64,000 bases of DNA, taken from contig CAWBOS010000012.1 in the NCBI GenBank assembly GCA_963790475.1, positions 1,472,001-1,536,000 on the forward strand. The letters run 5' to 3'. This DNA comes from an uncultured delta proteobacterium. Its GTDB lineage: Bacteria > Desulfobacterota > RBG-13-43-22. Positions 43,586 through 61,869 of the stretch are shown here, piece after piece; the stretch's first letter is position 1; each line of letters opens with the position of its first letter. Below the pieces are notes generated by a model that saw only the letters and a list, made by a program, of their open reading frames with translations, was not told the DNA's origin and did no database searches. The position numbers were made by a program, and so were the translations under genes.

Positions 43586-44562
43586 TGTTGAACTATATCA
43601 TCCGACGTGTGCTCTATGCCCTTCCGATCCTGATCGGAGTCAATATCATCACCTTCAGTCTGTTTTTTGTGGTCAATACCCCGGACGATATGGCCCGTAT
43701 CCATCTGGGGGTGAAGCGGGTGACGCCGGAAGCTGTTGCCAAATGGAAACAGGAGCGGGGTTACGATAAGCCGCTTCTGTTCAATTCTTCCGCTCCGGGT
43801 ACGGCCAAAGTGACCGATACCATCTTTTTCGAGAAATCGATCAGGCTGTTTGCCTTTCAATTCGGCCCGGCCGATGACGGACGCGACATCGCCTATGAAA
43901 TCAAGACCCGTATGGGACCGAGTCTGGCTATCGCCCTGCCCGTGTTTCTGCTGGGGCTGGCCTGCTATATCTCTTTCGCCCTGATGATGGCCTTTTTCCG
44001 GGCCACTTACCTGGATTTCTGGGGAGTGGTGTTGTGCGTGGCCATGATGTCCATTTCCAGTCTGTTTTATATTATCGGCGGTCAATACCTGTTGAGCAAA
44101 CTCTGGAACCTGGTGCCGATTTCCGGGTACGGCACAGGGATTATAGCCGTTAAATTTCTGATTCTACCGGTGTTGATCGGGGTGGTGAGCGGAATCGGCT
44201 CCGGTGCCCGCTGGTATCGTACCATCTTTCTGGAGGAAATCGGCAAGGACTATGTGCGCACCGCCAGGGCCAAGGGTCTGTCGGAATGGCGGGTCATGTA
44301 CAGACATGTCCTTCAAAATGCCATGATCCCCATCCTGACCGGGGCGGTGGTGGTCATTCCGGTCCTTTTTATGGGAAGCCTGATCACCGAATCCTTCTTC
44401 GGTATCCCGGGGCTTGGCAGTTACACCATCGATGCCATCAACTCCCAGGATTTTTCGGTGGTCCGGGCCATGGTTTTTCTGGGTTCGGTGCTTTACATTA
44501 TCGGACTTATTCTGACCGACATTTCCTATACGCTGGTTGATCCGAGGATACGACTGGAATAG
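43585..44562 (+). CDS. ABC peptide transporter permease (OppB/DppB-like)
   Basis: DYVRTARAKGL, ITESFFGIPGLG, DPRIR motifs. Confidence 0.92.
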   Translation: MLNYIIRRVLYALPILIGVNIITFSLFFVVNTPDDMARIHLGVKRVTPEAVAKWKQERGYDKPLLFNSSAPGTAKVTDTIFFEKSIRLFAFQFGPADDGRDIAYEIKTRMGPSLAIALPVFLLGLACYISFALMMAFFRATYLDFWGVVLCVAMMSISSLFYIIGGQYLLSKLWNLVPISGYGTGIIAVKFLILPVLIGVVSGIGSGARWYRTIFLEEIGKDYVRTARAKGLSEWRVMYRHVLQNAMIPILTGAVVVIPVLFMGSLITESFFGIPGLGSYTIDAINSQDFSVVRAMVFLGSVLYIIGLILTDISYTLVDPRIRLE

Positions 44563-44636
44563 CTGATAGCTCTTAGCTGATAGGTACAAAAAAGTTTTTT
44601 CTTCATCCTTTAAACTGTGACAAAGTCGTAACAGGT

Positions 44637-44706
44637 CGTCACCCCGGAGAAAACCGGGGTCCAGAAGTTTTTGTTTAAATTCCTGGATTCCGACTTTCGT
44701 CAGACG
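44637..44706. repeat. REP-like palindrome flanked by heptamer repeats (agctgat / ctatgag)
   Basis: cgtcaccccggagaaaaccggggtccag..ctggattccg. Confidence 0.75.
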
Positions 44707-44781
44707 AAAATGGGCGACTTTTTACTTGCTATCACTATGCGATTTAAACAATGAGCTGACCGCTATGAGCTATGAGGTAAT

Positions 44782-46260
44782 ATGATAATCATGAACTTCA
44801 AACCGATCATACTCTGGACCGATGCTCTGATTGCCGTTTTGCTTTTGGCCGGATTGGCTTACGGCTGGACGATATTGAGACACGAGCACCTGCTGGCCCC
44901 CTGGAAACGGGTAATCCGAAACACGAGCGGCCTGGTGTCCATGATCGTGCTGACCGTGTTTCTGGTAATCGGTTTGCTCGATACCCTGCATTTTCGCCCG
45001 GCCATGGAAACCCAAAAAAACGGCGAGAGGGCTTATGCGGTGGAGGTCTTAAGCCTTTTGGATCTGATGGTCGGTCCCTTAAGGCAGCATACCGAAAAAA
45101 CGTATTCCGCCCCTTTGGCCGCCCATCTTTTTTCCAAAGAAACCGTCGAGCTTCCCGACGGGCGGCAGGCGCGGATTTTCCCACGCCTGGTTTACGGTGG
45201 AGCCCATCTGAAAAATCCCGATCAGGATAAGGACGGTGATATAGCTAAACGCGGGATCTTCGGTTTAATCCTGGCCCTGGTGTTATGGGGCCTGGCAGCT
45301 AGTGTTTTGCTCGGGATCCTGGCCCGCCGCCGAAAAATCGGCCTGGCCTCATGCCTAAAGGGCGTATTCCGTGGTCAAGAGGAAATTCCCTGGAATGCCG
45401 CTTTATGGACCTTGCTGGGCCTTTTTCTGTTGGCTGTGCCCATTACCGTTCTCAGCCTCAAATATCACGTTTTCGGCACCGACAAGGTGGGACAGGACGT
45501 GCTTTATCTGGCCTTGAAGAGCATACGTACCGGCCTGGTCATCGGGACCCTGACCACAATGGTGATGCTGCCCTTTGCGGTTTTGCTCGGAATCATGGCC
45601 GGGTTTTTCCAGGGGTGGATTGACGATATCATCCAGTACGTCTACACCACCCTGAATTCTATTCCCGCCGTACTGCTGATTGCCGCGGCCGTTTTGATGA
45701 CCCAGGTTTACATGGATAGCCATCCCGAACTGTTCGAAACCGCCAGCGCCCGGGCTGACCTGCGCCTGTTGTTTTTGTGCCTTATTCTTGGCATCACCAG
45801 TTGGACCGGACTGTGCCGCCTGATGCGGGGGGAATCGTTAAAGATCCGGGAGATGGAATATATACAGGCGGCGCAGGCCTTCGGCGTTTCCGATTTCAAG
45901 ATCATTATTCGACATATCCTGCCCAACGTCATGCACATCGTGCTGATCGCCCTGGTCATGGATTTTTCAGGCCTGGTACTGGCCGAGGCCGTATTGTCCT
46001 ACGTGGGGGTCGGCGTGGATCCCTCGATGATCAGTTTCGGCACGATGATCAACAGTGCCCGTCTGGAAATGGCCAGGGAGCCGATGGTCTGGTGGTCCCT
46101 GTCCGCCGCCTTCGGCTTTATGTTCCTGCTGGTGTTGTGCGCCAATCTGTTTTCCGATGCGGTACGGGACGCCTTTGACCCGCGGGTCCAAACCCGGGCG
46201 GTACGGCTGCAGCTCTTTCGGAAACGTCCGCCGGCCGTGGCGAAAGGGAAGCCTTCATGA
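44782..46260 (+). CDS. ABC peptide transporter permease (OppC/DppC-like)
   Basis: GTDKVGQD, EYIQAAQAFG, RHILPN, DAVRDAFDPR motifs. Confidence 0.92.
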   Translation: MIIMNFKPIILWTDALIAVLLLAGLAYGWTILRHEHLLAPWKRVIRNTSGLVSMIVLTVFLVIGLLDTLHFRPAMETQKNGERAYAVEVLSLLDLMVGPLRQHTEKTYSAPLAAHLFSKETVELPDGRQARIFPRLVYGGAHLKNPDQDKDGDIAKRGIFGLILALVLWGLAASVLLGILARRRKIGLASCLKGVFRGQEEIPWNAALWTLLGLFLLAVPITVLSLKYHVFGTDKVGQDVLYLALKSIRTGLVIGTLTTMVMLPFAVLLGIMAGFFQGWIDDIIQYVYTTLNSIPAVLLIAAAVLMTQVYMDSHPELFETASARADLRLLFLCLILGITSWTGLCRLMRGESLKIREMEYIQAAQAFGVSDFKIIIRHILPNVMHIVLIALVMDFSGLVLAEAVLSYVGVGVDPSMISFGTMINSARLEMAREPMVWWSLSAAFGFMFLLVLCANLFSDAVRDAFDPRVQTRAVRLQLFRKRPPAVAKGKPS

Positions 46261-48304
46261 GCACACCCTTACTGGAAATCGATCGTTTAATAACCCGGCT
46301 GATCACAGACAGCGGTGTGATTAGAGCTGTGGACGGCCTGTCTCTGTCCATTAATCACGGGGAGACCTTCGCCCTGCTGGGGGAATCGGGTTGCGGCAAG
46401 TCCATGACTGCCCTTTCCATTATGCGCCTTTTGCCGGAGGCAGGTCTTATCCTTGGCGGCAGCATTCGGCTGGAGGGCCGTGATCTATTAGCCATTTCGG
46501 AATTGGAAATGCGTAACGTTCGGGGCCGACATATCGGTATGGTTTTCCAGGAACCGATGCTGAGCTTGAATCCGGTCATGACCATCGGGAACCAGGTGGA
46601 GGAAATTCTCATTCAACACCTCAAACTGCCGGGTGAGGAGGCCAGGAAACGTGCTCTGGCCCTGCTGGAGGCGGTGGGTATTCCCGATGCGGCCCGACGC
46701 AGCGGCTATTATCCCTTCCAATTTTCCGGAGGCATGAAACAGCGGGTGATGATCGCCATGGCCTTGGCTTGTGAGCCGGCCCTTTTAATCGCCGATGAAC
46801 CCACCACGGCACTCGATGTCACTACGCAAGCCCAGGTCCTTGATCTGTTACGGCAAATCCAGAGTCAGAGCCGCATGTCGATACTGCTCATCACCCATGA
46901 TCTCGGAGTGGTTTCAGAAATGGCCCACCAGGTGGCGGTGATGTATGCCGGCGAGGTGGTGGAAACGGCTGACCGCCAGCGGTTCTTCACCCATCCGGCC
47001 CATCCTTATTCAAGAAAACTCTTTGAATCCCTGCCCATGCGAAATAAACGGGGCGAGCCCCTGGCCATGATCAAGGGCAGCGTGCCACCCCTTACCAGGG
47101 AATTTTCAGGCTGCCGTTTTGTCGAACGCTGCGATTTTAGCTGGGATCGTTGCCTTTCCCGGGTGCCCCAATGGAACCAATGGGAGCCGGGTCGCTTTGT
47201 GAGATGCCACCTTTATGAAAATCAGGCGAGAGGCGAGAGGCAAGAGGACAAGGGCAAAGAGCAAAGGGCATGGAGCATGGGGGAGGGGGAGGGCGGCAAA
47301 GAAAGAGAGACGGGATTTGCGGCGCAAGATGCGAAAACACCTACACCCCTTCTGAAAGTGGAAGATTTGAAAGTTCATTTTCCAATCCGCAAAGGCCTCC
47401 TGAAGCGTACGGTGGGGTCCATCAAGGCCGTGGACGGCGTATCCCTTTCGGTTCCCATCGGAAGGACCCTGGCCCTGGTGGGGGAATCCGGCTGCGGCAA
47501 GACCACTCTGGGCAAGGGTATTCTCCGCCTCATCCCCCTGACCGGCGGTTCGGTTTGGTTTCAGGGAAAAGATCTTTCGTCTCTGTCCTCCGCGGAACTA
47601 AGGCCGCTGCGCCGGGAGTTTCAGATCATCTTCCAGGACCCCTACGCCTCGCTCAATCCCCGCCTGCGGATTGCGGAAATCATCGAAGAGGGTATGGCGG
47701 CCCTCGGCATCGGGACCGGCTCCGGCGATCGGATGATTCGTATCGACCGCTTGCTGGAGGAGGTCGGTTGTCGGCGTCGATCAAATTTCGCTATCCTCAT
47801 GAGTTCTCGGGAGGGCAACGTCAGCGAATCGCCATCGCCCGCGTCCTGTCCGTGAATCCTAAACTCATCATTTGCGATGAGCCGACCAGCGCGCTGGATA
47901 TTTCGGTACAAGCCCAGATCCTGAATCTGCTCAAAGAACTGCAGGACAGGCACGGTCTGGCCTATCTATTCATCACTCATAATATTTCCGTGGTCGAGTT
48001 TCTGGCCCACGAGGTGGCGGTGATGTACCTGGGGCGCATTGTCGAGCGGGGAACAGTAGAAGAGGTCTTGGACCATCCGAAACATCCCTATACCCAGGCG
48101 CTCCTTTCGGCCGTACCGTCGATCGATCCTAAAACCAAACGGGAGGTGATTCGTCTGCAGGGGGATCTGCCTTCCCCGGCTGATCCGCCACCCGGCTGCC
48201 ACTTCCATCCCCGCTGCCCTGAGGTCATGCCGAAATGCAGAGTGATCTACCCGGGTCAAAGCCGTTTCAGTGACACCCATTCCACGCACTGCCATCTGTA
48301 TTAG
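46257..48304 (+). CDS. Fused OppD/OppF-type double ABC ATPase with a 1-nt frameshift at ~47769
   Basis: Two GESGCGK Walker A motifs; the second signature ([17 protein letters not shown]) is in the next frame. Confidence 0.85.
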
Positions 48305-48356
48305 GATTATGGAGAGTTAAGGGGGATTGATATTATTGATGAACTCGTAAAAAGTT

Positions 48357-48434
48357 GTCACCCCGGTGAAAACCGGGGTCCAGAGGTTTTTAACTATTTA
48401 AAATTCCTGGATTCCGACTTTCGTCGGAATGACG
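48357..48434. repeat. REP-like palindrome
   Basis: gtcaccccggtgaaaaccggggtccag..ctggattccgactttcgtcggaatgacg. Confidence 0.8.
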
Positions 48435-48658
48435 AAAACAGGCTTCCGGTGGCTTTTTGCGAATCCGTCAATATTACCCAAGTGCAATTATTAAATTGCC
48501 TTTTTGCCACAGGAAAAACAGTCAAGAACAACAGACAAAACCTGATAAGCCTGCTATCGCTACATAAAGATTAAAAAGTTGCTTTTTAGTCGGATCAATA
48601 TAAAATTAAAGCTAAAAAGGGTGTTGAATGAAACGATGAATAGGAGACCGAAAAAAAA

Positions 48659-49420
48659 ATGTTCAAGAAGAGTATTTGGTTTTGGATACCGATTATCTGT
48701 TTATTCTTATTGTTGTTTTCCCGGCCAAGTGGGGCTATCGGCCTGGAGGCGGCCATCGGCCTCTCGTATCAGGATTTTCAGGGAGGTGTCGCCTATAAAG
48801 GAGATTCCCTCGATTTAAACAATGATTTGAGATTTAGTCGTGCTACCCAATTCTTTGGCCGGCTTAAAATTGATACACCCCTCGTTATCCCCAGTTTTTA
48901 CCTGATGGCCACGCCCATGAGCTTTGATGGAACGGCGACCGACAACCTCTCCTTTACCTTCGGGGATCAAACATTCAATGCCGGCATCCCTTTTTCATCG
49001 ACGTTAAGACTTGATCATTATGATTTGGCTTTGTATTACGGATTGCCTTTTGTAAAACAGGCTACGCTGGGGCGGATTAATATTGAGGCAGGATTGAATA
49101 TACGACTCTTTGATCTGAAAACAGAGATAACCCAGATGGGCAAATCGGAATCCGAGAGTTTTAATCTGCTTGTGCCAATGGCTTATCTTGGGCTCCAAAT
49201 CAAACCAACGAGTTTCCTTTCCCTGGAAGGAGAATTTCGAGGGGTTGCCTACAATAGCGATCATTACTATGATCTGATCGGCCGGGTCAAATACTATTTT
49301 GTCAAGTTGGCCTATGTCAGTGCCGGATACCGCCATGAAGAAATTTCCATGGACCAAAGTGATATAAAATTGAATGTCCGGTTTAGCGGACCTCAGGTAG
49401 AAGTAGGATTTCAATTCTGA
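48659..49420 (+). CDS. Outer-membrane beta-barrel protein (TIGR04219-like)
   Basis: Signal peptide, alternating beta-strands, DLALYY, AGYR, terminal Phe. Confidence 0.78.
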   Translation: MFKKSIWFWIPIICLFLLLFSRPSGAIGLEAAIGLSYQDFQGGVAYKGDSLDLNNDLRFSRATQFFGRLKIDTPLVIPSFYLMATPMSFDGTATDNLSFTFGDQTFNAGIPFSSTLRLDHYDLALYYGLPFVKQATLGRINIEAGLNIRLFDLKTEITQMGKSESESFNLLVPMAYLGLQIKPTSFLSLEGEFRGVAYNSDHYYDLIGRVKYYFVKLAYVSAGYRHEEISMDQSDIKLNVRFSGPQVEVGFQF

Positions 49421-49462
49421 AAAACTACCTTTTCCCATAGGCGCCGTCCCTATTTTAATAAT

Positions 49463-49624
49463 TTGTCAAGATAATGTTTATCATTTATAATGGGTTAAGT
49501 AAAATCCGGAGAGGTTAAATAATCAGGCGTCCTTCTATCAAAGACCAAAGATTCCTTTTTCCCTTCCTAAAGGGTTCCTTTGGGGAGAAAAGTTATAAAA
49601 ACATCTTAAAGTAACTGGTTAGCG
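49463..49624 (+). promoter_or_regulatory. Promoter plus attI-like module, copy 1
   Basis: TTGTCA-17-TATAAT; ends gtaactgGTTAGCG. Confidence 0.6.
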
Positions 49625-49656
49625 AGGAGGAAATATGGGAGTATGGAGGTAAGTAA

Positions 49657-49857
49657 ATGACAAGAATTGAAGAAATTGAAAATACGGTTGCCTCGTTGCC
49701 GGTAGAAGAATACCGGAAATTTCGAGAATGGTTCCTGGAACGTGACTGGGCGCAATGGGATAGACAGATTCAAGCCGACTCGGAGTCAGGGAAATTGGAC
49801 TTCTTCGTGAAAGAGGCCATGGAAGAGAAGAACCGTGGTAAGTTGAGAGATTTGTGA
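49657..49857 (+). CDS. Putative antitoxin
   Basis: WDRQIQADSESGKLD motif; overlaps the toxin start. Confidence 0.7.
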   Translation: MTRIEEIENTVASLPVEEYRKFREWFLERDWAQWDRQIQADSESGKLDFFVKEAMEEKNRGKLRDL

Positions 49858-50105
49858 TCCATCGCACAACCCGCCGTTTTTGGGACTGCTATCGGTCGTT
49901 ATCATCACAGACGAGAGAATTAGCTGACAAGAGCTTTACTCTTCTGCGCGAAGACCCTCGGCATCCCTCACTTCATTTCAAGAAGGTGGGGAAGGTCTGG
50001 TCTGCCAGAGTAGGTGCTGGCCATCGAGCTTTGGCTGTGCTCGACGGTCAGGACTATATCTGGGTGTGGATCGGGACACACGACGAGTATGAACGATTGA
50101 TATAA
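49854..50105 (+). CDS. ParE/RelE-like toxin
   Basis: [30 protein letters not shown]. Confidence 0.85.
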
Positions 50106-50152
50106 ATGCCAAACTGTAAATCCTACTAGAAATGGGGACATCCCCATCATTA

Positions 50153-50330
50153 TTATTCATCACACACAATATTTCCAGCTTCAGGGGGACCTGCCGTCCC
50201 CGGCCGACCCGCCCCCTGGCTGTCACTTCCATCCCCGATGCCCCGAGGTCATGCCGAAATGCCGGACGATTTACCCGGCCCAAAGCCGTTTCACCGACAC
50301 CCATTCCCTGCACTGCCATCTGTATGATGG
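50153..50330 (+). pseudogene. Diverged, internally deleted duplicate of the ABC ATPase 3' end
   Basis: LFITHNIS joined to [33 protein letters not shown]. Confidence 0.85.
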
Positions 50331-50397
50331 TTTGGAGGGGTGATTGATATTAAACATAGCGATATAAATTATTACCTTTAAATCCAATGCTCCCTTC

Positions 50398-50450
50398 CGT
50401 CATGCCGGACTCGATCCGGCATCCAGAGGATTCTAACCACTGGATTCTGG
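50398..50450. repeat. REP-like palindrome (partial)
   Basis: cgtcatgccggactcgatccggcatccag..ctggattc. Confidence 0.7.
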
Positions 50451-50462
50451 CTAGAAATTAAT

Positions 50463-50623
50463 TTGTTATGAGAATATTTATAGTTTATAATAGGTTATCT
50501 AGATTTTGAAAGGGTTCTCGTGCTATTGGATGTCCAACAATAGCCAAAGATCTTTGTTTTCATCCCCGAAGGGGTACCTTGAGGAGGGGAGTTGTACAGA
50601 AACAATAAAATAACTTGTTCTTC
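50463..50623 (+). promoter_or_regulatory. Promoter plus attI-like module, copy 2
   Basis: TTGTTA-17-TATAAT; ends aataacttGTTCTTC. Confidence 0.65.
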
Positions 50624-50645
50624 CATTGAAAATAAAGAGGAGGAC

Positions 50646-50834
50646 ATGATGCAAATTAACGACAAAAAAACGAACAAGAGTTCCCTTAGATTTCCATACC
50701 CACATGGCAAGCCCGTTGAGTGCCCACATTGCGGCGAGAAGTTCGAACTTAAACGTCTTTCTGAAGCAACTGGTTATTTTGAATGTTTAAATCCGAATTG
50801 TAGAAAGACCTTTCATGTAAAGAAGGACCATTAA
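50646..50834 (+). CDS. Small zinc-ribbon protein
   Basis: GAGGAGG RBS; CPHC..CLNPNC. Confidence 0.65.
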   Translation: MMQINDKKTNKSSLRFPYPHGKPVECPHCGEKFELKRLSEATGYFECLNPNCRKTFHVKKDH

Positions 50835-50868
50835 TACTATATGCCTCGTTTCTTAATTTCTTATTAAA

Positions 50869-50928
50869 CTTGAACAAGCCAAAATCAGCCGACGCAAAAA
50901 GCCGCGCGGCTGATTTGCAGCGTTAGTC
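50869..50928 (+). repeat. attC-like site
   Basis: ..GAAC, stem aaatcagccg/cggctgattt, ends GTTAGTC. Confidence 0.7.
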
Positions 50929-50957
50929 GCTGTTTCATTCCTTACCAAGGAGACGAT

Positions 50958-51239
50958 ATGAATGTTTTATTAGATGATTTAGAAACAGAATGGAAGAAAG
51001 TTCCAGAATACAAAGATGTGGAAGCTGAATATTGGGTTCCTGGGCAGAACCAAATAGAGAAGTGCCCAAATGGATGTGAACTGGTAATTTATGAAGGTAA
51101 TCCTGTAAAATGGGACCGGGTATCGGGCCGTGATGCTTATCGCCAGACAAGGATATGTAGGAAACATGGTTTTGCACGAATTTATGTTATAACCGGCCCT
51201 GCCGCATTGGCTACAAAGTGGAATCCACAGAATTCATAA
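50958..51239 (+). CDS. Hypothetical cassette protein (CPNGC..CRKHG)
   Basis: AAGGAG RBS directly after the attC-like site. Confidence 0.65.
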   Translation: MNVLLDDLETEWKKVPEYKDVEAEYWVPGQNQIEKCPNGCELVIYEGNPVKWDRVSGRDAYRQTRICRKHGFARIYVITGPAALATKWNPQNS

Positions 51240-51316
51240 AAAGCCATGAGGATTGTCATTAATTATATAAGAAACTTTAGAATAACTTGTTCGGCTTACT
51301 AAGCGGGGTACGAGGT

Positions 51317-51697
51317 ATGATCTTTGAGACGTACTATTGGAGATTGGAATTGGGACGTCTTTCGCGCGTACTGCATCGTCACATTACACAGCGCCGGTGG
51401 CGTACATCATCTGATGCATCGGTCGAAAAATGTATAATGCTAGGCTTCTATTCAGTTCGCAAACTGCTTGACGCATTTCAGCCGCCTCCGAATATGGCGT
51501 TTCAATTAACTGTCACAACGTCCCCCTTTTTTGGCGATCATTACTATGATCTGATCGGTCGGGTCAAATACAATTTTATTAAGTTGGCCTTCGTTAGTGC
51601 CGGATACCGCCATGAAGAAATTTCCATAGACCAAAGTGATATAAAACTGAATGTCAGGTTTAGCGGACCTCAGGTAGAAGTCGGATTCCAATTCTGA
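51317..51697 (+). pseudogene. Truncated cassette gene fused in frame to a duplicate of the beta-barrel gene 3' end
   Basis: 51534-51697 closely matches 49257-49420 (DHYYDLIGRVKY..VEVGFQF*). Confidence 0.8.
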
Positions 51698-51760
51698 AAA
51701 CCAGGGGGAGAGTTATCCCCACGAAAAGTGAATTAATAGACGCTGTTGTCCCTATTTTCA

Positions 51761-51890
51761 GATCCAAAAACCAAACGGGAGGTGATCCATCTTCGGGGGG
51801 ATATGCAGTCCCCGGCCGACCCCCCGGCCGGCTGCCATTTTTATCTCCGCCGCCCTGAAGTCATGCCGAATTGCAAAGTGATCTATCCGG
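51761..51890 (+). pseudogene. Second diverged duplicate of the ABC ATPase 3' end
   Basis: [39 protein letters not shown]. Confidence 0.82.
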
Positions 51891-51902
51891 TTGGAAAATA
51901 AT

Positions 51903-52063
51903 TTGTTTAGACAATGTTTATCATTTATAATAGGTTTCCTGGAATTTGAAAGGGTTGTGGTGCCTTTGGACGTCCATCAACAGCCAATAGTCTTTGTTAG
52001 CATCCTCGAAGGGATACATTGAGTTGGGGAGTTAGAAAAAAACTTTAGAATAATTTGTTAGGG
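51903..52063 (+). promoter_or_regulatory. Promoter plus attI-like module, copy 3
   Basis: TTGTTT-17-TATAAT; ends aataatttGTTAGGG. Confidence 0.65.
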
Positions 52064-52072
52064 ATTGACTTC

Positions 52073-52735
52073 ATGGAAAAGCAAGCGTGGGACATTTCCT
52101 GCACAAAGGAAGAATTTGAAAAGATAAAATCAGACGAATGTTTCATTGGATTGCTTACTTTGGGTAGGGTCGTGAACGCTTTGCGTTTTTGCCAAAAGCC
52201 TGCAAGAGACGCTAAAGGTGGCTCTGACCCTTCAAGTGCTCGCTCTATGATTAACTCTTTTTTATTCGCAAGCTCAGTTTTATACGAAGGGTTTCTGCTG
52301 GTTGAAAAATTGGTCAGGCAATATAAAGATCGTGATTCATTCAAAGATGGTTTTGGAGCTTTGTTAAGAGACGACTTGGTTACATCTTTGAGAACATCAG
52401 TTCTAAAAAGAGCAAGGAATAAATTTATTTTTCATTTCGATAGGGATGTGTCGAGAGAAGCACTACAATATTTTGATATGGCAACTATTAAATTTGCATC
52501 AGGGGTTGGGAAAGCCACTGGTGAAATGTATTTTGGTTTGGCTGATGAACTTGCGATGAATTACTTGTTACAGCCAAAAGAAAATGAATCTAATGAGTCT
52601 TTGATGCAACGATACGCAAAAATCGTGAAGGACACTACCTCTATTATGGGACAATTTACCAAATCCACAGAAATTCTTATGGCAGATGTGTTGAAAGATA
52701 TGGGGTTTGTTGTCAAGAACGCTGCGCGTCCCTGA
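52073..52735 (+). CDS. Hypothetical helical protein with a HEPN-like RNKFIFH motif
   Basis: AT-rich ORF with an R-N-x4-H motif. Confidence 0.6.
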   Translation: MEKQAWDISCTKEEFEKIKSDECFIGLLTLGRVVNALRFCQKPARDAKGGSDPSSARSMINSFLFASSVLYEGFLLVEKLVRQYKDRDSFKDGFGALLRDDLVTSLRTSVLKRARNKFIFHFDRDVSREALQYFDMATIKFASGVGKATGEMYFGLADELAMNYLLQPKENESNESLMQRYAKIVKDTTSIMGQFTKSTEILMADVLKDMGFVVKNAARP

Positions 52736-52880
52736 CATCTCTGTAGATGATCATCTGTGGCTGCTCAGCGTTTGCACCTCAATACCATCGGATGCAGCAG
52801 ACAATCCCGCCGGCAAGCAAGCTTGCCTCCGGTCTTGCTCCCGTTCCCCAGTCATTAGGCTTAACGAGAGGAGAACAAAT

Positions 52881-53675
52881 ATGGGACTTCTCGACAATCT
52901 AAGAAGAAACATGCCAGGGGGGCCAAGAAATATTGCTAAGCACTTATTGAAATACTACTTGGCTGATATAACAAGGTTTCCCTATTTAAATTCAAAAGAA
53001 ATATTCAAAAAGATGTTGCAGGATCGTTATGCAGTTATAAAGAAGATGAGTGCTGACGATATAATGAAAATTGTTTCAAAGACTGATACTTTGGTTGAAC
53101 TTACATTAGAAGTTATTGCATATGAGCATCCTGCCGCAATGAATTCGCACTATCAAAAAGAAACCTGTGACGATATCTTTGACTTCTTTAAAGAGAACGT
53201 ACCTCAGGAGTTTGAAAGATTTATCAATAAGGTTAATGCTACAGAAAATCAGGACAATTATGAATTCGGGATTCGGAAATCTGCCCCCATACCTATAAGG
53301 CCACCAATATCCAAAGAAGAGGCATTTGTCGAATGGATGTTACGTTATGATGAAGATACCCTGCTATTTCGACAAATGATTTCAGATGAGAACTTAGATC
53401 ATGTTGTAACGAGCACTACAAAATTGATAATCCGAGAAGTGAACGATAATCCAAGTGGCGAAATGCTAATGGATAGATTAGGTACTATTAGGGAGTTTTG
53501 TCAAACATCTCTAAAACCAATCATTGAAAAAAGAAGGGGCATAGAATTTTGCCCCGAAGAAATACAAATCGTATTTCTCGCCTGCCTAACAAAGATGTCA
53601 ATATTGCCGTATTTCGTAAAGTACAAATATAATGTACCAGTTCCAGAAGGGTTTCTCCCGCTTAAAGAATTATAA
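52881..53675 (+). CDS. Hypothetical cassette protein
   Basis: GAGGAG RBS before MGLLDNL; AT-rich; preceded by a degenerate attC-like element ending ATTAGGC. Confidence 0.7.
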   Translation: MGLLDNLRRNMPGGPRNIAKHLLKYYLADITRFPYLNSKEIFKKMLQDRYAVIKKMSADDIMKIVSKTDTLVELTLEVIAYEHPAAMNSHYQKETCDDIFDFFKENVPQEFERFINKVNATENQDNYEFGIRKSAPIPIRPPISKEEAFVEWMLRYDEDTLLFRQMISDENLDHVVTSTTKLIIREVNDNPSGEMLMDRLGTIREFCQTSLKPIIEKRRGIEFCPEEIQIVFLACLTKMSILPYFVKYKYNVPVPEGFLPLKEL

Positions 53676-53870
53676 CTGATAACGTGCGGCATGCAACCGG
53701 AGGGGTCTCGACCTACTGCTGTGGAAGCCGGGGTCAAATCTTTATCTTTACATTTAGAAATATTTATTGTGTTGGATAAGCCATGATAAGAACCTTGAGA
53801 ATCCAATATCCTAATACGTATTATCTTGTGACCTGCTGCGAAAAAAGGGACGTTGATAAAATATCACTTT

Positions 53871-54080
53871 ACAGATAGTGAATGTTGGGATCAGGTTTCG
53901 GTTCGAATCAACTGGGGTCTGATGCTGCAAAAAATCAAATGGAAAGACTTCAATGAAACACGGATGCTGATTGGATCGGCTATTCTTCTCTTCTTTTTGA
54001 CAGGCCTCTTTCTGCAGGCGCCGGCGTATGCCGAATCCTGTGAAAAGGTCGTTCATGCGGTCAATATGCGGCTCTCGGCC
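53871..54080 (+). pseudogene. Diverged 5' fragment (with upstream region) of the barnase-like gene
   Basis: AYAESCEKVVHAVNMRLS is identical to the 56323 gene; frameshifted start. Confidence 0.85.
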
Positions 54081-54282
54081 GCGGAACATAGGGCCAGGTC
54101 TTGAAATATAAGTTTTATGGTTAGGATTTTCCTACCGAAGTATTTTCTTAAAAAGATTGTGGTTTGTAGGAGAATTCTTTATACTAAAGCTAAAACGGTG
54201 ATAGTAGCGATAGGGGTAAAGGAAAGTGATTTTTCACGACCCCATTTCCTTGAATGACTTTGAGATATTGGAGGAACGATTT

Positions 54283-54504
54283 ATGAAGAAGCAAATTACA
54301 GCGCTTATTGAACGTGAAGGGGATGGTTTTGTATCGCTTTGCCCGGAACTCGATATCGCCAGTCAGGGCGATACAATCGAAGAAGCCCGTGAAAACCTAC
54401 GTGAAGCTCTTGAGCTTTTCTTTGAGACCGCTTCCCCCCAGGAGATTCAATCACGCTTTCATGAGGAAGTGTATGTAACGAGGCTGGAGGTTGCAGTTGC
54501 CTAA
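54283..54504 (+). CDS. HicB-family antitoxin
   Basis: CPELDIASQGDTIEEARENLREALELF. Confidence 0.88.
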   Translation: MKKQITALIEREGDGFVSLCPELDIASQGDTIEEARENLREALELFFETASPQEIQSRFHEEVYVTRLEVAVA

Positions 54505-54718
54505 ACTCCGTGTTCTATCTGGGAATCAAGTTTGTGAGATCCTATTACGCCATGGATTCCTTGAGGTGCGGCGCCATGGCAGCCATATCGTAATGCAGAA
54601 GCGATTGCCGGATACAACGATTACCGTACCTGTCCCAAATCATACAGATCTGCGGATTGGTACACTTCAATCCATCATCCGCCAGTCTGGTATATCTAGA
54701 ACCGAATTTGAATCCTGA
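54497..54718 (+). CDS. HicA-family toxin
   Basis: GF..VRRHGSH..VPVPNH..GTLQSIIRQSG. Confidence 0.9.
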   Translation: MPKLRVLSGNQVCEILLRHGFLEVRRHGSHIVMQKRLPDTTITVPVPNHTDLRIGTLQSIIRQSGISRTEFES

Positions 54719-54724
54719 GCGATC

Positions 54725-54788
54725 GCCCAACAAGTCGTTCCCCCGAATCGCCTAAATAACAGTCTTCCCGGTGAACTCACCGTTGATC
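54725..54788 (+). repeat. attC-like site after hicA
   Basis: GCCCAAC..GTTC...GAAC..GTTGATC. Confidence 0.55.
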
Positions 54789-54830
54789 AAGGAAAAGCCA
54801 AGGAGATGGTAGGTGAAAAATAACACGTTA

Positions 54831-56239
54831 GAGAACCTTTTGCAAAACTTATAAAAACTGCATGATGAAATATATCAGCAGGCGGTTATCCCAGTCGATT
54901 TAGGAATTTTGGGTCTTTCTTAACGACGATAGTCAGATTTGAGACTTTGGTAACAATTTTCAGGCATAGTTCTCCTCCTGACCTGAACTTTTCACCCCGT
55001 TCTTTGAAAATTTACTCAGGAAGCCAACTTTATCAACTGATCCGCAAAGAGCGCCAGGACGCCAAACATGAGATGGAGATTGACTTTCAAGGCTCCTCGG
55101 ACCATGACATTCTTGGCACCGAACTCTTCTTTTAACCGGCTATTGAACCGTTCTGATGCTGTCCTTCCATTAAATCTTCTGGCCTCGTGGGGAGCCATAG
55201 GGATCACATCCTTACCGCGGAAGTTCTTGTCGATAATGGGCACATGTCCCAGAGCTCTGCTGATTGCATAGATAGATCCAGCGTCATAAGCGGCATCCAT
55301 CAAATCATAAAGATAATCCACCTTGGAACTAGTCATCTTCATTAACGGTATAGCGACCTGGCTGTCATGAAGCGATGCTGCGGTCAAGACGACACTCACC
55401 GGCAATCCGCAATCATTAACATCGGCATGGAGTTTATACCCGACCCAGGTCTCTTTGTACCCTTTGGAGTTCTTCTTGGTCCCTACGTCGCAGTAAACCG
55501 GCAATTCTTTTAAGGCCTCTTCAACTGATTGCTCTCGTTGCCTGGTCAAGCGTTTGTCTTCCTTGGAATCACGGAGTTCTCCCTTGACTGGACGTCCTCT
55601 CTTCTTCGGCGCAGGCTTTTCTTTTACAGGCTTCTTAGTCGGCTTTTCCCGACCTTCTATGGCCGTTGCGTCTCGGGATATATGACCAACCAGTTCCGGC
55701 TTTAAACAACGTTCCACCAGGGCTTCGTGAACTTTTTCGCCAAGCCCCCCTTCGGCAAACTCCGCAAAGGCCCTGGAAAAAGTGGCCTCAGAGGGAATGT
55801 CGGATACCTTTTCGAACCCGCAGATGCGTCTTACATTAGACGTCGTTTTCAAATGTTCAATGGTTGATCTGGTGAAGGAATGGTTATAGACCGTCTTGGC
55901 CACAAAAGCCCGCGCTATCGCTTGGCGCTCAAGGATCTTCCTCCCCATCCACTGATTTAAAGAACTCCGGGGAACATATCTTTCAACCTCAACCAGTTCC
56001 AATATCGTCACCAGCCGTTCCTCTTTTTCAGTCAAAGGCTGTTCCCAACATTCTTCTAAATCGGAAAATAAACCTTGTTGCAATCTACCCCTTAACCATG
56101 ATACTTTTTTCCAGAGCTTCATCGGTGTCTCCTGTGTTTTTTTGTGTTCTTTCTAAACATCATCTTAACACAGAACCACCGCTGAGGCTCACTCTTTATG
56201 CTTGTCTATTCCCTAAAAATAGACTTTTGCAAGAGGCTC
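54831..56239 (-). mobile_element. IS5/IS1182-like insertion sequence
   Basis: IRs gagaaccttttgcaaaa / revcomp gagcctcttgcaaaa; TA on both flanks. Confidence 0.78.
55016..56122 (-). CDS. DDE transposase (IS5/IS1182-like)
   Basis: PSEATFSRAF, ISRDATAI, GYKLH, DAAYD, ERFNSRLK motifs. Confidence 0.9.
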   Translation of the reverse strand: MKLWKKVSWLRGRLQQGLFSDLEECWEQPLTEKEERLVTILELVEVERYVPRSSLNQWMGRKILERQAIARAFVAKTVYNHSFTRSTIEHLKTTSNVRRICGFEKVSDIPSEATFSRAFAEFAEGGLGEKVHEALVERCLKPELVGHISRDATAIEGREKPTKKPVKEKPAPKKRGRPVKGELRDSKEDKRLTRQREQSVEEALKELPVYCDVGTKKNSKGYKETWVGYKLHADVNDCGLPVSVVLTAASLHDSQVAIPLMKMTSSKVDYLYDLMDAAYDAGSIYAISRALGHVPIIDKNFRGKDVIPMAPHEARRFNGRTASERFNSRLKEEFGAKNVMVRGALKVNLHLMFGVLALFADQLIKLAS

Positions 56240-56322
56240 TAGAGAAAGTGGATATTGGAATCAGGTTTCGTTTCGAAGCACCCGGACCTGATACTGCAAA
56301 AAAATCAAATAGAAAGAATTCA

Positions 56323-56793
56323 ATGAAACAACGGATACTAATCAGATCGGCTATCCTCTTCCTCTTTTTGATAGGCCTCTTCCTGCAGACGCAGGCCTAT
56401 GCCGAATCCTGTGAAAAGGTCGTCCATGCAGTCAATATGCGGCTCTCGACCGGAATCGACGAGCGGGAATTGATCGAAATAATCCACAATCTGAACAGGA
56501 CGAGCAACAAAAGGCTTCCTTCTAAGTTCGTGAACAAGCGGGAGGCCTGGTCAGAGGGATGGAAACCTGGAAGGGACTTGTGGTCAGTCAGATCACTTAG
56601 AGGCTCGAGCATGGGGGGCGACTATTTCAAAAACCTGGAGGGTCGGTTGCCTGACAATAAATGGCGCGAGGCGGATCTCGACTATAAGGGCGGACACCGG
56701 GGCGGCAAACGCCTTATCTTTTCAGGCGATGGGGAGCGATTTGTGACCGTAGACCACTACAAGACCTTTACGGAGGTGCCGGCATGCCGGTGA
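56323..56793 (+). CDS. Secreted barnase/RNase Sa-like ribonuclease
   Basis: Signal peptide (AYA|E), GGDYFKNLEGRLP, WREADLDY, RGGKRLIFS, TVDHYKTF. Confidence 0.9.
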   Translation: MKQRILIRSAILFLFLIGLFLQTQAYAESCEKVVHAVNMRLSTGIDERELIEIIHNLNRTSNKRLPSKFVNKREAWSEGWKPGRDLWSVRSLRGSSMGGDYFKNLEGRLPDNKWREADLDYKGGHRGGKRLIFSGDGERFVTVDHYKTFTEVPACR

Positions 56794-57062
56794 AACGATT
56801 CCAATTAAATGGGAGCACAATACGTTCTCTCGATGATCTCTATGATCGGATGTCATCCCTCATCGATCTGCCGGAGCACTTCGGGCGCAATCTCGATGCG
56901 CTCTGGGACGTCCTTTCCACTGATGTCGAAGGTCCTTTCGAGATCGTCTGGAAGAATGCGGATAATTCAAAGAAGTTTATGGGCAAGGATTTTGATCGGA
57001 CCGTGAAGATGCTGCGGGAGCTGGAAAAAGAACGGGATGACTTCAAATTGATGATCGATTAA
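56784..57062 (+). CDS. Barstar-family inhibitor
   Basis: LPEHFGRNLDALWDVL; overlaps the RNase stop. Confidence 0.92.
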   Translation: MPVKRFQLNGSTIRSLDDLYDRMSSLIDLPEHFGRNLDALWDVLSTDVEGPFEIVWKNADNSKKFMGKDFDRTVKMLRELEKERDDFKLMID

Positions 57063-57290
57063 TAAGATAGCCCACAACACATTAAACCTATGGGGGCCAT
57101 GCAGGAAAAAAGAAAAGGTCAAATACTTTTTTGCCACAGACCCACACGGGCAAAAGCCGGACAAAAGCCTATCTCTCACAGAGCTCTCAGAGACTCAGAG
57201 CAACCTAATTTATTGATTGCCGGTGAGGGGCCGGCAATCAATAACATTCACTACCCTGGGGGTAATTTTTTGGGCGGAGACCAGAGTTGG

Positions 57291-57362
57291 GGCATTTGCG
57301 GCCTCATGCCGGCCCTCACTCAATTCCTGCGGCAGAACATGGTCCACATACTCCCTTTCTAC
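57291..57362 (-). pseudogene. Diverged duplicate of the enoyl-CoA hydratase 3' region
   Basis: VEREYVDHVLPQELSEGRHEAANA vs VEREYVDYVLPQELSEDRQEAANA at 61909-61980. Confidence 0.85.
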
Positions 57363-57386
57363 CCCTGAATCTTTAAATAGCCCCTG

Positions 57387-60300
57387 TTATCTGGTCTTAA
57401 ATAAAGACAATTGGGACGTGATTGCTTTTTCCTTGTCCACCTTTTTCTGCAGGCGGGCCGCCTCCCGAAGGTTACCCCGCTTTTTCCAGATTCCCAGGGC
57501 TTCTTCCAAACGATTCATCCGCTCATAGACCCGGGCCTCCCCCGCTTCGTCTCCGATAGCCTTAAAGCAGCGGAGGGCCTCTTCGTTATGACCGCCATCA
57601 CGGTAGGTCCGACCTGCTTCCGAATAAAATTTCGTTTCTTCAAGAATATGGCCAGCCAATTGTAAATTACGGTGCCGCCGGGCCAGGTGAACGGCCTCTT
57701 CGGTTTTCCGTTCCCCCAAGAGAAATTCCACGGCCTGCCGGTAATGCCTCGGGCTTTCGCCGAAGAGCCTGTAATTCCAGCCGGTCATCTCAATGCGGTC
57801 CAGACTGGTTTCAAAAGCGTCTTTGTCCTGATAGAACTGATAGCAAGCCAGGAGAGCCGGGTCTTTTTCCCGGGCGGCCAGCCGTTTCAATTCGGCGATG
57901 AATTTTTTCAAATTCTGGGAAATGGATTTGGCAAAGAGCGTTCCTTCCCGGACCGCTTCAAAAATTCCGTTGTAATTCCGGGTTTGGAGCAGAAAGTTCA
58001 AAACGGGACCAGGCAAACTGGACCCCCAGAAGGGGAGGGAGGAGATAAACTGTTCCACACCGGGCCGCCATTCCTCTTTATTTCCCTTTTCCAGGAGCCG
58101 GGTCAGAAGCTCGGCAATAAATACCTGGGCCTCCGTCCGAAGCCGATAGTGGTTATCTGTTTCCAAATATTTATGCAGAAGGGCCTGCAAAAAGGGAAGC
58201 GTGATTTTCGGGCCGGCGGCTTCCTTCACATATCTCCCGGCCTCCTCCAGGCGGTTGCCCCTCAGAAAATAATCCAAGGCCTCCTCGTCCCGGCCGGTTT
58301 TCCGGTAAGCCTCCCGAACCAGGTCCGGGGCATTGACGGCCTTGAATCGGACCAGTGCCCGGTCCGGGGAGCCTTCCTTTAAAAACTGTTCCCCCTCCTG
58401 GAGGAGTTTCAGTTCCTTTCGCGTCTCCTGCCGGCCTTCACCGAGATGGAAGGAAAGAAATTCGGCGGCCTGCTCCCATTTATCCGGAAGCTGACTTTGC
58501 TCGATTTCCAAAGCGGCCTGATAATAATCCCCCAGGTTATAAAAACAATCGGCAGCGCTTTCGTGATTTCCCAGGGCTTGGTATTGGGGTGCGGCCAAGT
58601 TATAAAAGCGTTTTTTGAAGAAGAAAGCGGCCGATTCCTCATATTGCCCCAGTGCAAACGAACGAACGGCCGCTTTCAGCAGGTTGTTTTTGAGCACTGC
58701 CTGGCTTTTTTCTTTTTCCATGAGGGCGGCCTGCTCCTTGCCGGTTCGGGCGAACCGGGTGAAGGCTTCCATGGCCGCGGCCAGGTCCCCGTTCTTTTCA
58801 TGCAGAAGGGCGGTCTGGTAATCGTCCCCCCCTTTGACGTAGCACTCCAGCAGTCGGGCCTGGTTTTTCAACCTTTTGTACATGGCGGCGGCCTCGGCCC
58901 AGTTGCCGGCCTGGTAAAATAGGTCCGCGGCCCGATCGAGCTTTTTCAACTTTTTAAAGAGGACCGCGGCCTGCCGGTACAATCTCCCGGCCGCGAAGGC
59001 CTCGGCCGCCTCCGGGTACTTCTTGTTGGCGGCCAGGTATTCGCCCAGGCGTTGGTGATTCCCGGCCTTCCGCCAATTCTCCAGGGCCTTGGTGATCTCC
59101 TTCCTTCTGAGCCATTCCTCTGCAGCCCGGTCAAACTCGCCCTGCTGCTCGTAAAGGAAGATCCGGCATAGGGCTGCGCGCTCGTGGTCTTTCAATTTTT
59201 CCCATATGTCCATGGCCAGCTCCCATGAACCGGAACGCTCATAACAGGCGCCGGCCTGGGGCCAATAACTGTGCTTCTCAAACAGCGGGGCGGCTTCCCG
59301 GAATTGTTTGCGCTGCTCCCAAACAAAGGCCTGGGCGATTTCCGCCCGATCGAGGCTGCCGGCGTTTTTGTAACATTCCAGGGCCGCCGGGTAATATTCA
59401 CGCTCCAGGAAATAATCTCCCTGATCGGCCCATTCCTCCGGTGAGGAGACCCGGTGCCAGAGCCGGGGCAGCGCTTCGGAATCGGATGTTGAAAACAAGA
59501 ATTCGACGAGCTCGGTCAAGTTCCAGATCTCCGCGCCCGGATCGTAAATGATGAGGGTGTTCCGGGCCCGGGTAATGGCCACGTACAGCAGGTTGATCTC
59601 GTGGCGCAGGTGCGGTTGGCCGCTGCGCTCAAGTTCCCTTCCGTTGAGGATACGCCGCCAGAGCGGGGCCGATTTTGGATCGGCGGAAAATTTCCAGACC
59701 AGAACCGTATCGAATTCCAGCCCCTTGGCCTCCTGGATGGTGAAAATCAATTCCGTTCCCAGGACCTGTTTCAGCCGGGTCTGCTCTTCCCGGTCCCGGA
59801 CCAGAATGACCTGCCCGGCGGCCCGCAGCCGCAGTTGGGAGAGGATTTTTCCCTCTTCCATGTCGGTCAGCAGAAAGGGGGGCTTCCCGTTGAATTTCCA
59901 TTCCTCCCTGATTTCCGAGCCGGCCAGCCCGATCAAACGCTGTTTGAGGTCCAGCAAGGCGTTGGCCAGCTTGACCACGTTGCCCACACAGCGAAAGTTG
60001 ATCCGCAGGGAGTGTACCCGGGGCACCTGGATCCCGCGTTCGAAAAATTTGTTCCGCACCTCCTCCCAGCGAAAGCCGCTGGGATTGATGATCTGCTTGG
60101 TATCGCCAGCGAGGACCACGTTCTCCGGAGAACCGGCCAGCCGGAAGATCAGGGACAGTTGCACGTCGGCGAAGTCCTGGACTTCGTCACAGACTACCAG
60201 ATTATAAGAAGTCTGGGGGTCGGCCCCCCGGCCCAGCCGGTCCAGGACCCGGCGGCAGAGGTCGATCTCATCCCACAGCCCCTGTTCCTCCAGTTTCCCC

Positions 60301-61619: not shown

Positions 61620-61869
61620 CACCGGTTCCTCATTAAAAGTGCGAACGCATAAAGATCTTAAAGACCGGGCTCTCACAAGAGCCGATGTAAATGGGCAATT
61701 TTAATTTTTCCATCGCGGAGAGGCAAAGGGCCCAAAGAAGAAATATTTTTTATTGATTGTCTCGCCGTTGGCGGGATTCAATCCACCTCTTATGGGATTG
61801 AACGAAAATAATTCTTCTGCGATCTTTGCGGCTTGGAGGTGAACAAAAACTTTTTCTTCAAGCACCTTT

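Follow-up and report, generated by a model that had tools for sequence, protein, structure and literature searches.

Orphan Copies of a Putative Integron Promoter and attI Module, Stacked and Dispersed in a Desulfobacterota Genome Lacking an Integron Integrase

Integrons are classically viewed as one integrase, one attI site, and one array. Here, we analyzed a window of 64,000 nucleotides from an uncultured delta proteobacterium (Desulfobacterota; assembly GCA_963790475.1, contig CAWBOS010000012.1, positions 1,472,001 to 1,536,000), in which a noncoding module of ~165 nt, composed of a promoter-like head, a variable middle and a tail ending at GTT, occurs three times in a row. We concluded that, most likely, this module comprises the Pc promoter and the attI site of the integron of this lineage. 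Taken as a whole, the module is probably the Pc and attI of a native chromosomal integron, orphaned in this genome, with its layout in the window stacked by recombination. Homology and context lend good support to an attI-like nature of the copies, as suggested by an initial annotation made from the sequence alone: along their full length, they are homologous to the stretch that separates intI from the first cassette in congeners, and attC sites lie downstream of them. Hereafter, genomes of the same family are designated by G numbers, the window's genome (6.34 Mb) being G000, and contigs by C numbers.

Results

Structure of the Module in the Window

Three modules and one remnant were located on the forward strand of the window:

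49452..49620, +, module A: -35 box TTGTCA at 49463, 17-nt spacer, -10 box TATAAT at 49486-49491, terminal GTT at 49618-49620
50452..50619, +, module B: TTGTTA-17-TATAAT, -35 box at 50463, terminal GTT at 50617-50619
51892..52059, +, module C: TTGTTT-17-TATAAT, -35 box at 51903, terminal GTT at 52057-52059
51269..51291, +, fourth, partial copy (...AGAATAACTTG|TT), retaining just the last 23-26 nt of the tail, G at 51289

The G|TT split falls after the first coordinate of each terminal GTT, which is offset by 155 nt (A) or 154 nt (B and C) from the start of the -35 box; on direct reading, all coordinates that the initial annotation had given for -35 boxes, terminal GTTs and the partial copy were exact. 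In a repeat search of the window, modules B and C were 78% identical across 174 nt (50446-50619 vs. 51886-52059), the 40-nt heads showed 80-90% mutual identity and the 26-nt tails 77-88%; module A has the head and tail in common with B and C and is divergent in its middle part. A profile built from five copies recovered the three modules at E values of 7e-38 (A), 5e-48 (B), and 9e-48 (C), far beyond chance. Conservation of the head extends from an A-rich stretch upstream of the -35 box to ~7 nt past the -10 box. The tail (...TTATACAGAAACTTTAGAATAACTTG|TT) is the best-conserved part of the module (...TTATACAGAAACTTTAGAATAACTTGTT) and ends abruptly, and the middle varies in both sequence and length. 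Heads A and B scored 11/12 and 10/12 against the sigma-70 consensus and were the top matches within 49300-55000, and module C, the -35 hexamer of which is weak (3/6), was absent from the list of that scan. The claim that similarity ends at G|TT and that each copy is followed by unrelated genes was also borne out, with homology breaking off at or just beyond GTT in each window module and unrelated open reading frames (ORFs) lying downstream. A motif in the head (GATAATATTTATC) may bear some likeness to a Fur box.

In a subfamily of modules, the middle contains the palindrome TTGGA(C/T)GTCCAA, for example at 50533-50546 and 51974-51985 in the window. The halves of this palindrome resemble attC R boxes (GTTGGAC/GTCCAAC), and it could be a candidate integrase-binding element.

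The Module Adjoins Integron Integrase Genes in Congeners

The location of the module relative to intI in related genomes carries most directly on its identity. The integron integrase family TIGR02249 was detected above its cut-off in 6/21 family genomes. Four of these integrase genes, each in a different congener (G004:C14, G002:C47, G001:C166, and G007:C174), are directly adjoined by a module in divergent orientation at a distance of 0-100 nt, and two of them scored 402.9 and 363.2 bits in NCBIfam (cut-off 265). In three genomes, ~100 nt separate the head from the start codon of the integrase, and in G007:C174 the left edge of the module runs into the long intI reading frame. In addition, the module adjoins a C-terminal intI fragment in G014:C53. 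When the four intI-side modules, that of G014:C53 and the three window copies were aligned, invariant columns were observed throughout the head and the tail. The G004:C14 contig ends within the tail, and three intI contigs in all end inside or soon after the module, which we attributed to the effect of a dispersed repeat on assembly. In this lineage, the integrase open frames are 471-524 aa long (L210, L212, L213, and L211), with a conserved N-terminal extension ahead of the TIGR02249 match that begins MLAIPS... in three of them.

The arrangement in G007:C174 was the most complete. The GTT of its module is followed by an array of cassettes, with canonical attC sites at L211 6048-6105, 7430-7488, and 9428-9486 and a further 100-nt attC near L211 4651-4752. 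The three short sites (58-59 nt) each have an R''/R' stem, unpaired spacers and a bulged L stem, with z scores of -2.1 to -2.8. Because the module alone lies between the integrase and the first cassette, the module must contain the attI of that integron, and the G|TT of the tail would be the natural crossover point of this integron.

No integron integrase was detected in the window's genome, in which the best TIGR02249 match scored 105 bits against the cut-off of 265 and the best tblastn match to congener IntI showed 31% identity. Thus, service in trans by an integrase elsewhere, as the initial annotation had envisaged, is impossible for this assembled genome unless an integrase enters from outside. 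The best, sub-threshold TIGR02249 match of the genome is a 314-aa XerC/D-like recombinase, of which an equal-scoring copy exists on C11; three attC-like hairpins lie directly 5' of this gene (G000:C10:1649972-1651184).

Dispersal of the Module across the Genome and the Family

The five-copy profile detected 10 near-full modules in this genome, all at E<=2e-9; with a threshold of E<=1, a separate head profile recovered 22 copies and a separate tail profile 30. Heads and tails can also stand alone, and several tails may follow one another, as on C13, where four are found within 6 kb. In a DNA search, the module was found in 12/13 congeners and in 15/18 family genomes; the most matches among congeners were observed in G008 (21) and G005 (17), and G004 and G007 each have an integrase plus at least 5-8 module loci elsewhere. 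A local promoter duplication was ruled out by the copies on six contigs (C1, C6, C10, C12, C13, and C15) and in 12/13 congeners. The genes behind the modules are diverse and mostly accessory, including toxin-antitoxin pairs, nuclease-like genes and unknowns, as labeled from their translations.

Comparison of orthologous modules demonstrated that the sequence after GTT varies between species, a point that the initial annotation had named for checking. At two positions (G010:C15 vs. G000:C10:1889 kb, and G010:C20 vs. G000:C10:142 kb), modules that share their upstream core flank are followed by unrelated DNA; the copy at G000:C10:1889 kb is a far shorter module with an unrelated middle. G010:C34 and G000:C10:1797 kb share the same module and ~150 nt of cargo in different surroundings. 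We listed 52 unique tails, of which 38 have GTT in register: the base following GTT is A or G in 30/38 and T in 0/38, and the junctions GTTAGGC, GTTGGGC and GTTAGCC are recurrent. At the other end, 9/32 modules have a GTT just 5' of the A-rich stretch before the -35 box, a placement that might be in keeping with excision from a secondary site.

Several further occurrences were recorded. One module of G008:C41 (L069, 2406-4473) is split by two ORFs in its middle, flanked by a duplicated piece of ~35 nt (GGGTTGCCTTCCCCAA...); the two ORFs were read as methyltransferase-like from their translations alone. A scan of contigs with a 17-mer of the tail returned mainly chance matches from unrelated phyla. 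This 17-mer is present on eight contigs of one Bacteroidales metagenome-assembled genome (L111, L113, L129, L132, L141, L145, L148, and L154) and may be an unrelated repeat of that genome. A tail 5' of a seemingly housekeeping ddl gene was dismissed as such a case, since at E<=1e-60 none of 13 congeners yielded an orthologue of the Ddl-like gene; it is located in an 8-kb island that is missing from G011 and G012, the edges of which do not match a tail.

attC and attC-Like Sites

An attC site has, by definition, an R'' of RYYYAAC, an L''/L' stem with extrahelical bases, an R' of GTTRRRY and a length of 57-141 nt. The search relied on crude, layout-based heuristic scanners, which overlooked known sites (for example, the 100-nt attC of G007:C174); a MAFFT alignment of five congener attCs was structurally inconsistent. 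The three hairpins of the window that the initial annotation had called attC-like are as follows:

50869..50928, +, attC: R'' CTTGAAC, 5-nt spacer, L stem, 5-nt spacer, R' GTTAGTC
52793..52853, +, attC-like hairpin: degenerate R'' GGATGCA, R' GTTCCCC, z score -1.56
54725..54788, +, weakly folding attC after HicAB: R'' GCCCAAC ... R' GTTGATC, z score -1.67

The first of these was convincing as an attC-type hairpin, and the other two were weak, one because of its degenerate R'' and the other because of its poor fold. The site at 50869-50928 has an L stem of 10-11 bp with one bulged base and the same fold layout as the congener attCs, its DNA fold reaches -15 kcal/mol (z score -3.26), and it was the top-ranked site across the 64-kb window in the layout-based scan; its R'' CTTGAAC pairs with R' solely via AAC/GTT. 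A relative of this site occurs in another array of the genome (C12, ~1221 kb), the likeness being confined to R''-R' with unrelated flanks. The hairpin at 52793-52853 appears to have the attC layout of 7+5+17...17+5+7, as read off its sequence. The site at 54725-54788 shows 81% column identity, in matching orientation, to a site of G011:C102 located ~800 nt from an intI fragment; this alignment is restricted to CCCAAC...CGTTG and is bounded exactly by AAC...GTT. That the homologues of both the first and the third site are alike only from R'' to R' is expected of cassette boundaries. None of the attC sites of the window matched Rfam.

Around distinct tails, strand-matched attC-like sites within 2.4 kb numbered 8 downstream vs. 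1 upstream in the raw count (~101 kb scanned per side). The sole upstream site is the window's own attC, which lies within the stacked array; thus, the distinct count is 7 downstream vs. 0. Many genes in the arrays of this genome are separated by tails rather than by attCs.

Origin of the Island and Its Stacked Layout

The modules of the window are located in an island of ~8 kb (49423-57369), which G011 and G012 lack at the orthologous position; G011 carries other genes there, and G012 has a gap of ~450 nt. The features of the island and its left flank are as follows:

47270..48304, +, 'oppF' 3' part, oligopeptide-type ABC ATPase (PF08352 oligo_HPY, 76.8 bits; syntenic with congeners)
48659..49420, +, beta-barrel outer membrane protein (OMP)-like gene, conserved flank (weak Pfam match)
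49657..50105, +, cargo of module A: overlapping 66-aa and 83-aa ORFs, ParE-like toxin pair (PF24732 below cut-off)
50154..50340, +, oppF' pseudo-fragment, 84% to 48155-48308, with an internal deletion
50618..50922, +, putative cassette: 62-aa zinc-ribbon ORF (50646-50834) plus attC, bounded by attI G|TT and attC G|TT
50923..51291, +, putative cassette with a 93-aa ORF (50958-51239), closed by the attI tail remnant 51269-51291
51317..51533, +, 5' part of an unknown ORF, severed at the OMP' junction that is the right end of the inserted block (genome-unique)
51534..51758, +, OMP' 3' fragment plus ancestral OMP-downstream DNA (congener matches past the stop codon)
51761..51901, +, another oppF' 3' fragment (the second), abutting module C at ...CCGG|TTGGAAAAT
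52073..52735, +, 220-aa ORF, no family
52881..53675, +, 264-aa ORF
53853..54104, +, copied 5' region of a barnase-like gene (80-94% to 56237-56452)
54283..54718, +, HicB-like/HicA toxin-antitoxin pair (HicA 59.8 bits; HicB-like below cut-off)
54832..56200 (right limit approximate), -, insertion sequence (IS) with DDE transposase 55016-56122, past the HicAB cassette
56098..57062, +, barnase-like ribonuclease plus barstar; the strain-specific island ends near 57369

Two sets of duplicated gene ends point to the way in which this layout arose. The OMP-like gene, which has orthologues in 7/12 congeners searched, is intact, and its last 167 nt (49257-49423) are a donor-type copy of a duplicated 3' end, 93% identical to 51534-51700 (repeat D2), with module A directly after it. 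The fragment 51534-51758 matches the OMP-downstream DNA of G010, G011 and G012 past the stop codon, whereas the DNA after 49423 does not. On this comparison, the OMP gene originally ended in the fragment 51534-51758, which retains the DNA that lay downstream of it, and the copy before module A indicates that the block 49257-51533 was added by recombination anchored in the OMP 3' end. Similarly, 3' fragments of oppF, the conserved left flank from which they were copied, precede modules B (84%) and C (~80%), and the oppF orthologue of G008:C29 is natively trailed by a module. These results indicated that the modules came with their upstream flank from related islands and, with a copied oppF or OMP 3' fragment accompanying each module, that pieces of homologous islands were stacked by recombination. 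The three-in-a-row layout thus points to a stack of recombined pieces rather than to a multi-site platform that evolved or was built in place, and the multi-attI platform of the initial annotation was not sustained in that sense.

The cargo of the island was only partly assignable to families. The ParE-like label remains weakly supported, PF24732 scoring 23.3 bits against a cut-off of 24.4, and an attC looked for downstream of this pair was not found. The 62-aa ORF matched zinc-ribbon families, all below their cut-offs, which is as far as the earlier zinc-ribbon assignment goes, and the earlier HEPN-like label of the 220-aa ORF was not confirmed by any Pfam, NCBIfam or PADLOC family, a weak Atlas lead (0.85) being the only one. 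The 264-aa ORF likewise belongs to no known family among Pfam, NCBIfam and PADLOC. The tail remnant that closes the cassette with the 93-aa ORF matched the tail profile at E 1.2e-5 and is 77-88% identical to the last 23-26 nt of the tail, and there is no attC at that site.

Other observations concern the duplicated and flanking sequences. The oppF' pseudo-fragment is trailed by its native downstream DNA, including a short REP-like repeat at 50395-50447 (also at ~48360-48420) that consists of a GCCGGA...TCCGGC hairpin followed by TCCAGAGG and parts of which are present at >15 further sites of the genome. The gene to which the oppF part belongs encodes a two-domain ABC ATPase and is apparently split by a frameshift into two overlapping ORFs (46257-47855 and 47270-48304) that are read in different frames, the second ATPase domain being divided between them. 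Two copies of the 5' region of the barnase-like gene are present, one upstream of the HicAB pair and the other beyond the IS. The IS transposase is of the DDE_Tnp_1/DUF772 type, and a 184-nt end of the IS is found in ~12 near-identical copies in the genome. In a contig from read run X2, 54831 is fused directly to 53873-like DNA, which suggests a related strain without the 54832-56200 insertion. The right flank of the island is a gene for a 1429-aa UvrD-type helicase with TPR repeats (57387-61676, -), which has GajB-like PADLOC matches and is kept in G011.

Discussion

Weighing the Integron Reading against Its Alternatives

The points on which the initial annotation had staked its reading came out in its favor, namely the presence of intI in relatives, at least one attC-like hairpin, and differing cargo behind orthologous modules. 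Several results nevertheless weigh against interpreting the module as the Pc and attI of an integron. The window's genome lacks IntI, and G005 and G008 have no IntI at E<=1e-30 despite the richest module counts, which suggests that the module persists, and perhaps spreads, without the enzyme. Among the 38 in-register tails, strict GTTRRRY was found at 6, and a single hairpin of the window was a convincing attC. Genome-wide, attC-like hairpins within 6 kb of modules were not enriched (9/141 in 5.1% of the genome, with ~7 expected), indicating that most arrays hold few recognizable attCs. The intI-linked modules may stem from one or two ancestral loci, and such shared descent would leave few independent observations. 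Given its variable position relative to intI, the module could also represent a promoter element inserted at attI. With regard to the layout, the contigs from read runs hold little of the stretch and are too short, and none bridges a module junction.

The main rival, which we considered unlikely, is that the module is a self-standing portable promoter or leader repeat with no role in integron recombination, its adjacency to intI being one more insertion; in this case, the GTT end would mark where transcription starts from a second promoter, located in the tail (TTGGGG-16-TAGAAT). The many copies in genomes without IntI (G005, G008 and the window's genome) would be readily explained in this way, as would the separate occurrence of heads and tails. 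The -10-like TAGAAT of the tail lies 7-8 nt before similarity ends, conservation of the head too stops ~7 nt past TATAAT, and the left edge differs by ~10 nt among copies, as if promoter function alone had been retained. However, the -35-like part of the tail is its least conserved part, whereas conservation peaks in the spacer and in the final 13 nt, which is unusual for a promoter. The purine after GTT in 30/38 tails, with T never occurring, also argues against this rival, as do the canonical attC cassettes that start at GTT in G007:C174, where the gap from intI to the first cassette consists of the module alone, so that attI lies within it. No terminal inverted repeats or target duplications were seen in the repeat search.

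A second alternative concerns only the layout: the three-in-a-row arrangement might be an assembly artefact, in which strain variants of one locus with a single real module were joined serially. The bin has a contamination of 9.68%, the OMP' (93%) and oppF' (84%) copies are alike to the degree of alleles from related strains, and no read or contig bridges the junctions. We regarded this explanation as quite improbable, in that the junctions are precise and have fused reading frames (51533/51534), the cargo behind each module is unrelated rather than allelic, and stacked tails are found at further loci and contigs, such as the four on C13; moreover, it would alter the count of modules in the window and not the identity of the module.

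The third alternative, a structured noncoding RNA or cis-regulatory leader of the riboswitch or antitoxin RNA kind, appeared very unlikely. The module has its own strong putative promoter, with ~120 nt predicted to be transcribed ahead of the first ORF, and single-sequence folds contain hairpins, including a possible pairing of the 5' GGUUAC with AUAACUU in the tail. RNAalifold, however, returned 0 consensus pairs for 25 modules, and a second run was weak (-9 kcal/mol; covariance evaluation 8.1). Rfam 15 had no match to the modules at E<=1 within 44000-60000, and the middle is the least conserved part and varies in length, that of the module at G000:C10:1889 kb being unrelated. Finally, the module was rejected as an attC, with its head and tail being direct rather than inverted repeats and a 6-bp AGTTAT/ATAACT stem as the sole internal pairing, and as an IS200/605 element or a miniature inverted-repeat transposable element with cargo, with no head-tail inverted repeat, a left edge that varies by ~10 nt, and a head and tail that lie 2 kb apart in G008:C41 and enclose no transposase.

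A Model for the Orphan Modules

Returning to the interpretation of the module as a Pc promoter plus attI, we proposed the following model. The head would be a near-consensus sigma-70 promoter, presumably active, that transcribes rightwards via the tail into the downstream DNA, and the tail would be a double-stranded site at which the integron integrase, cutting at G|TT, would join cassettes between G and TT. With the integrase gene gone from this genome, ~10 full and some 20-30 partial orphan modules would persist. The island of the window would thus hold three full modules and one remnant of 23-26 nt downstream of the OMP gene, heading small accessory genes that comprise two putative toxin-antitoxin systems, a zinc-ribbon gene and genes without assignment; an attC would still accompany some of these. 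The stacked layout would have resulted from the recombination of pieces of homologous islands, each with an oppF or OMP 3' fragment.

The sites in this genome are more likely relics and portable promoters than sites served in trans. A more far-reaching possibility, which we put forward tentatively and consider doubtful, is a distributed integron, in which one integrase serves many scattered Pc-attI pads. Each pad would capture and express its own cassettes, and pads would possibly be copied as circles made by the integrase and cut at the GTT just 5' of the promoter; genomes that have lost the integrase, such as this one, would keep frozen pads that an incoming integrase could reactivate. Service in trans is a live possibility in congeners that hold an integrase together with several orphan modules, such as G004 and G007.

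Comparison with Known Integron Systems

The window locus is closest to an integrase-less integron platform and to a CALIN, which is a cluster of attC sites without an integron integrase (IntegronFinder, PMC4889954), and it is set apart from both by its several attI/Pc copies. As in the intI-Pc-attI platform of sedentary chromosomal integrons, a promoter is directed into an array, an attachment site ends at G|TT, a divergent TIGR02249 integrase adjoins the module in congeners, and R''-L''...L'-R' attCs follow; unlike that platform, the window's genome lacks the integrase and has 10 near-full copies of the module. With a CALIN, the locus has in common an integrase-less stretch, small cassette-like genes and attC sites. 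A CALIN is defined by attC sites alone; in the island, good attCs are few, and there are several attI/Pc modules, which IntegronFinder would be expected to miss.

Two other known systems offer partial parallels. Delta-attI-type cassettes are known in class 1 and class 2 mobile integrons and can be recombined by IntI1 (PMC12901181). The cassette with the 93-aa ORF, closed by a truncated attI of 23-26 nt that ends at the crossover G, corresponds to the cassettes portrayed there. Those cassettes are rare, single and located in clinical mobile integrons with IntI1 (PMC12901181), whereas the tail-bounded units in this genome are common, chromosomal and without an integrase. Cassettes with attC have also been described to insert at genomic attG sites outside integrons (bioRxiv 10.1101/2022.09.11.507474). 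Such insertion would provide a route by which circles made by an integrase could reach many sites of a genome, although that work concerns attC cassettes, and the dispersed unit here would be an attI with its promoter. Judged by titles and the beginnings of abstracts, no paper on orphan or dispersed attI sites was found in full-text searches.

Implications

These results suggest that the landing pads of integrons can multiply and scatter through a genome. Software detects integrons via intI and attC only, and the attI models of IntegronFinder reportedly cover classes 1-3 only; if the interpretation is true, orphan attI sites of nonclinical integrons would be invisible to current tools, and surveys would thus undercount integron-derived DNA. 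The dozens of natural attI variants would make up a set for studying what the integrase needs in its double-stranded site. If attI-promoter modules multiply away from intI, cassettes could be captured and expressed at many chromosomal sites simultaneously, and a horizontally acquired integrase could, if this is true, re-arm islands that now lack one.

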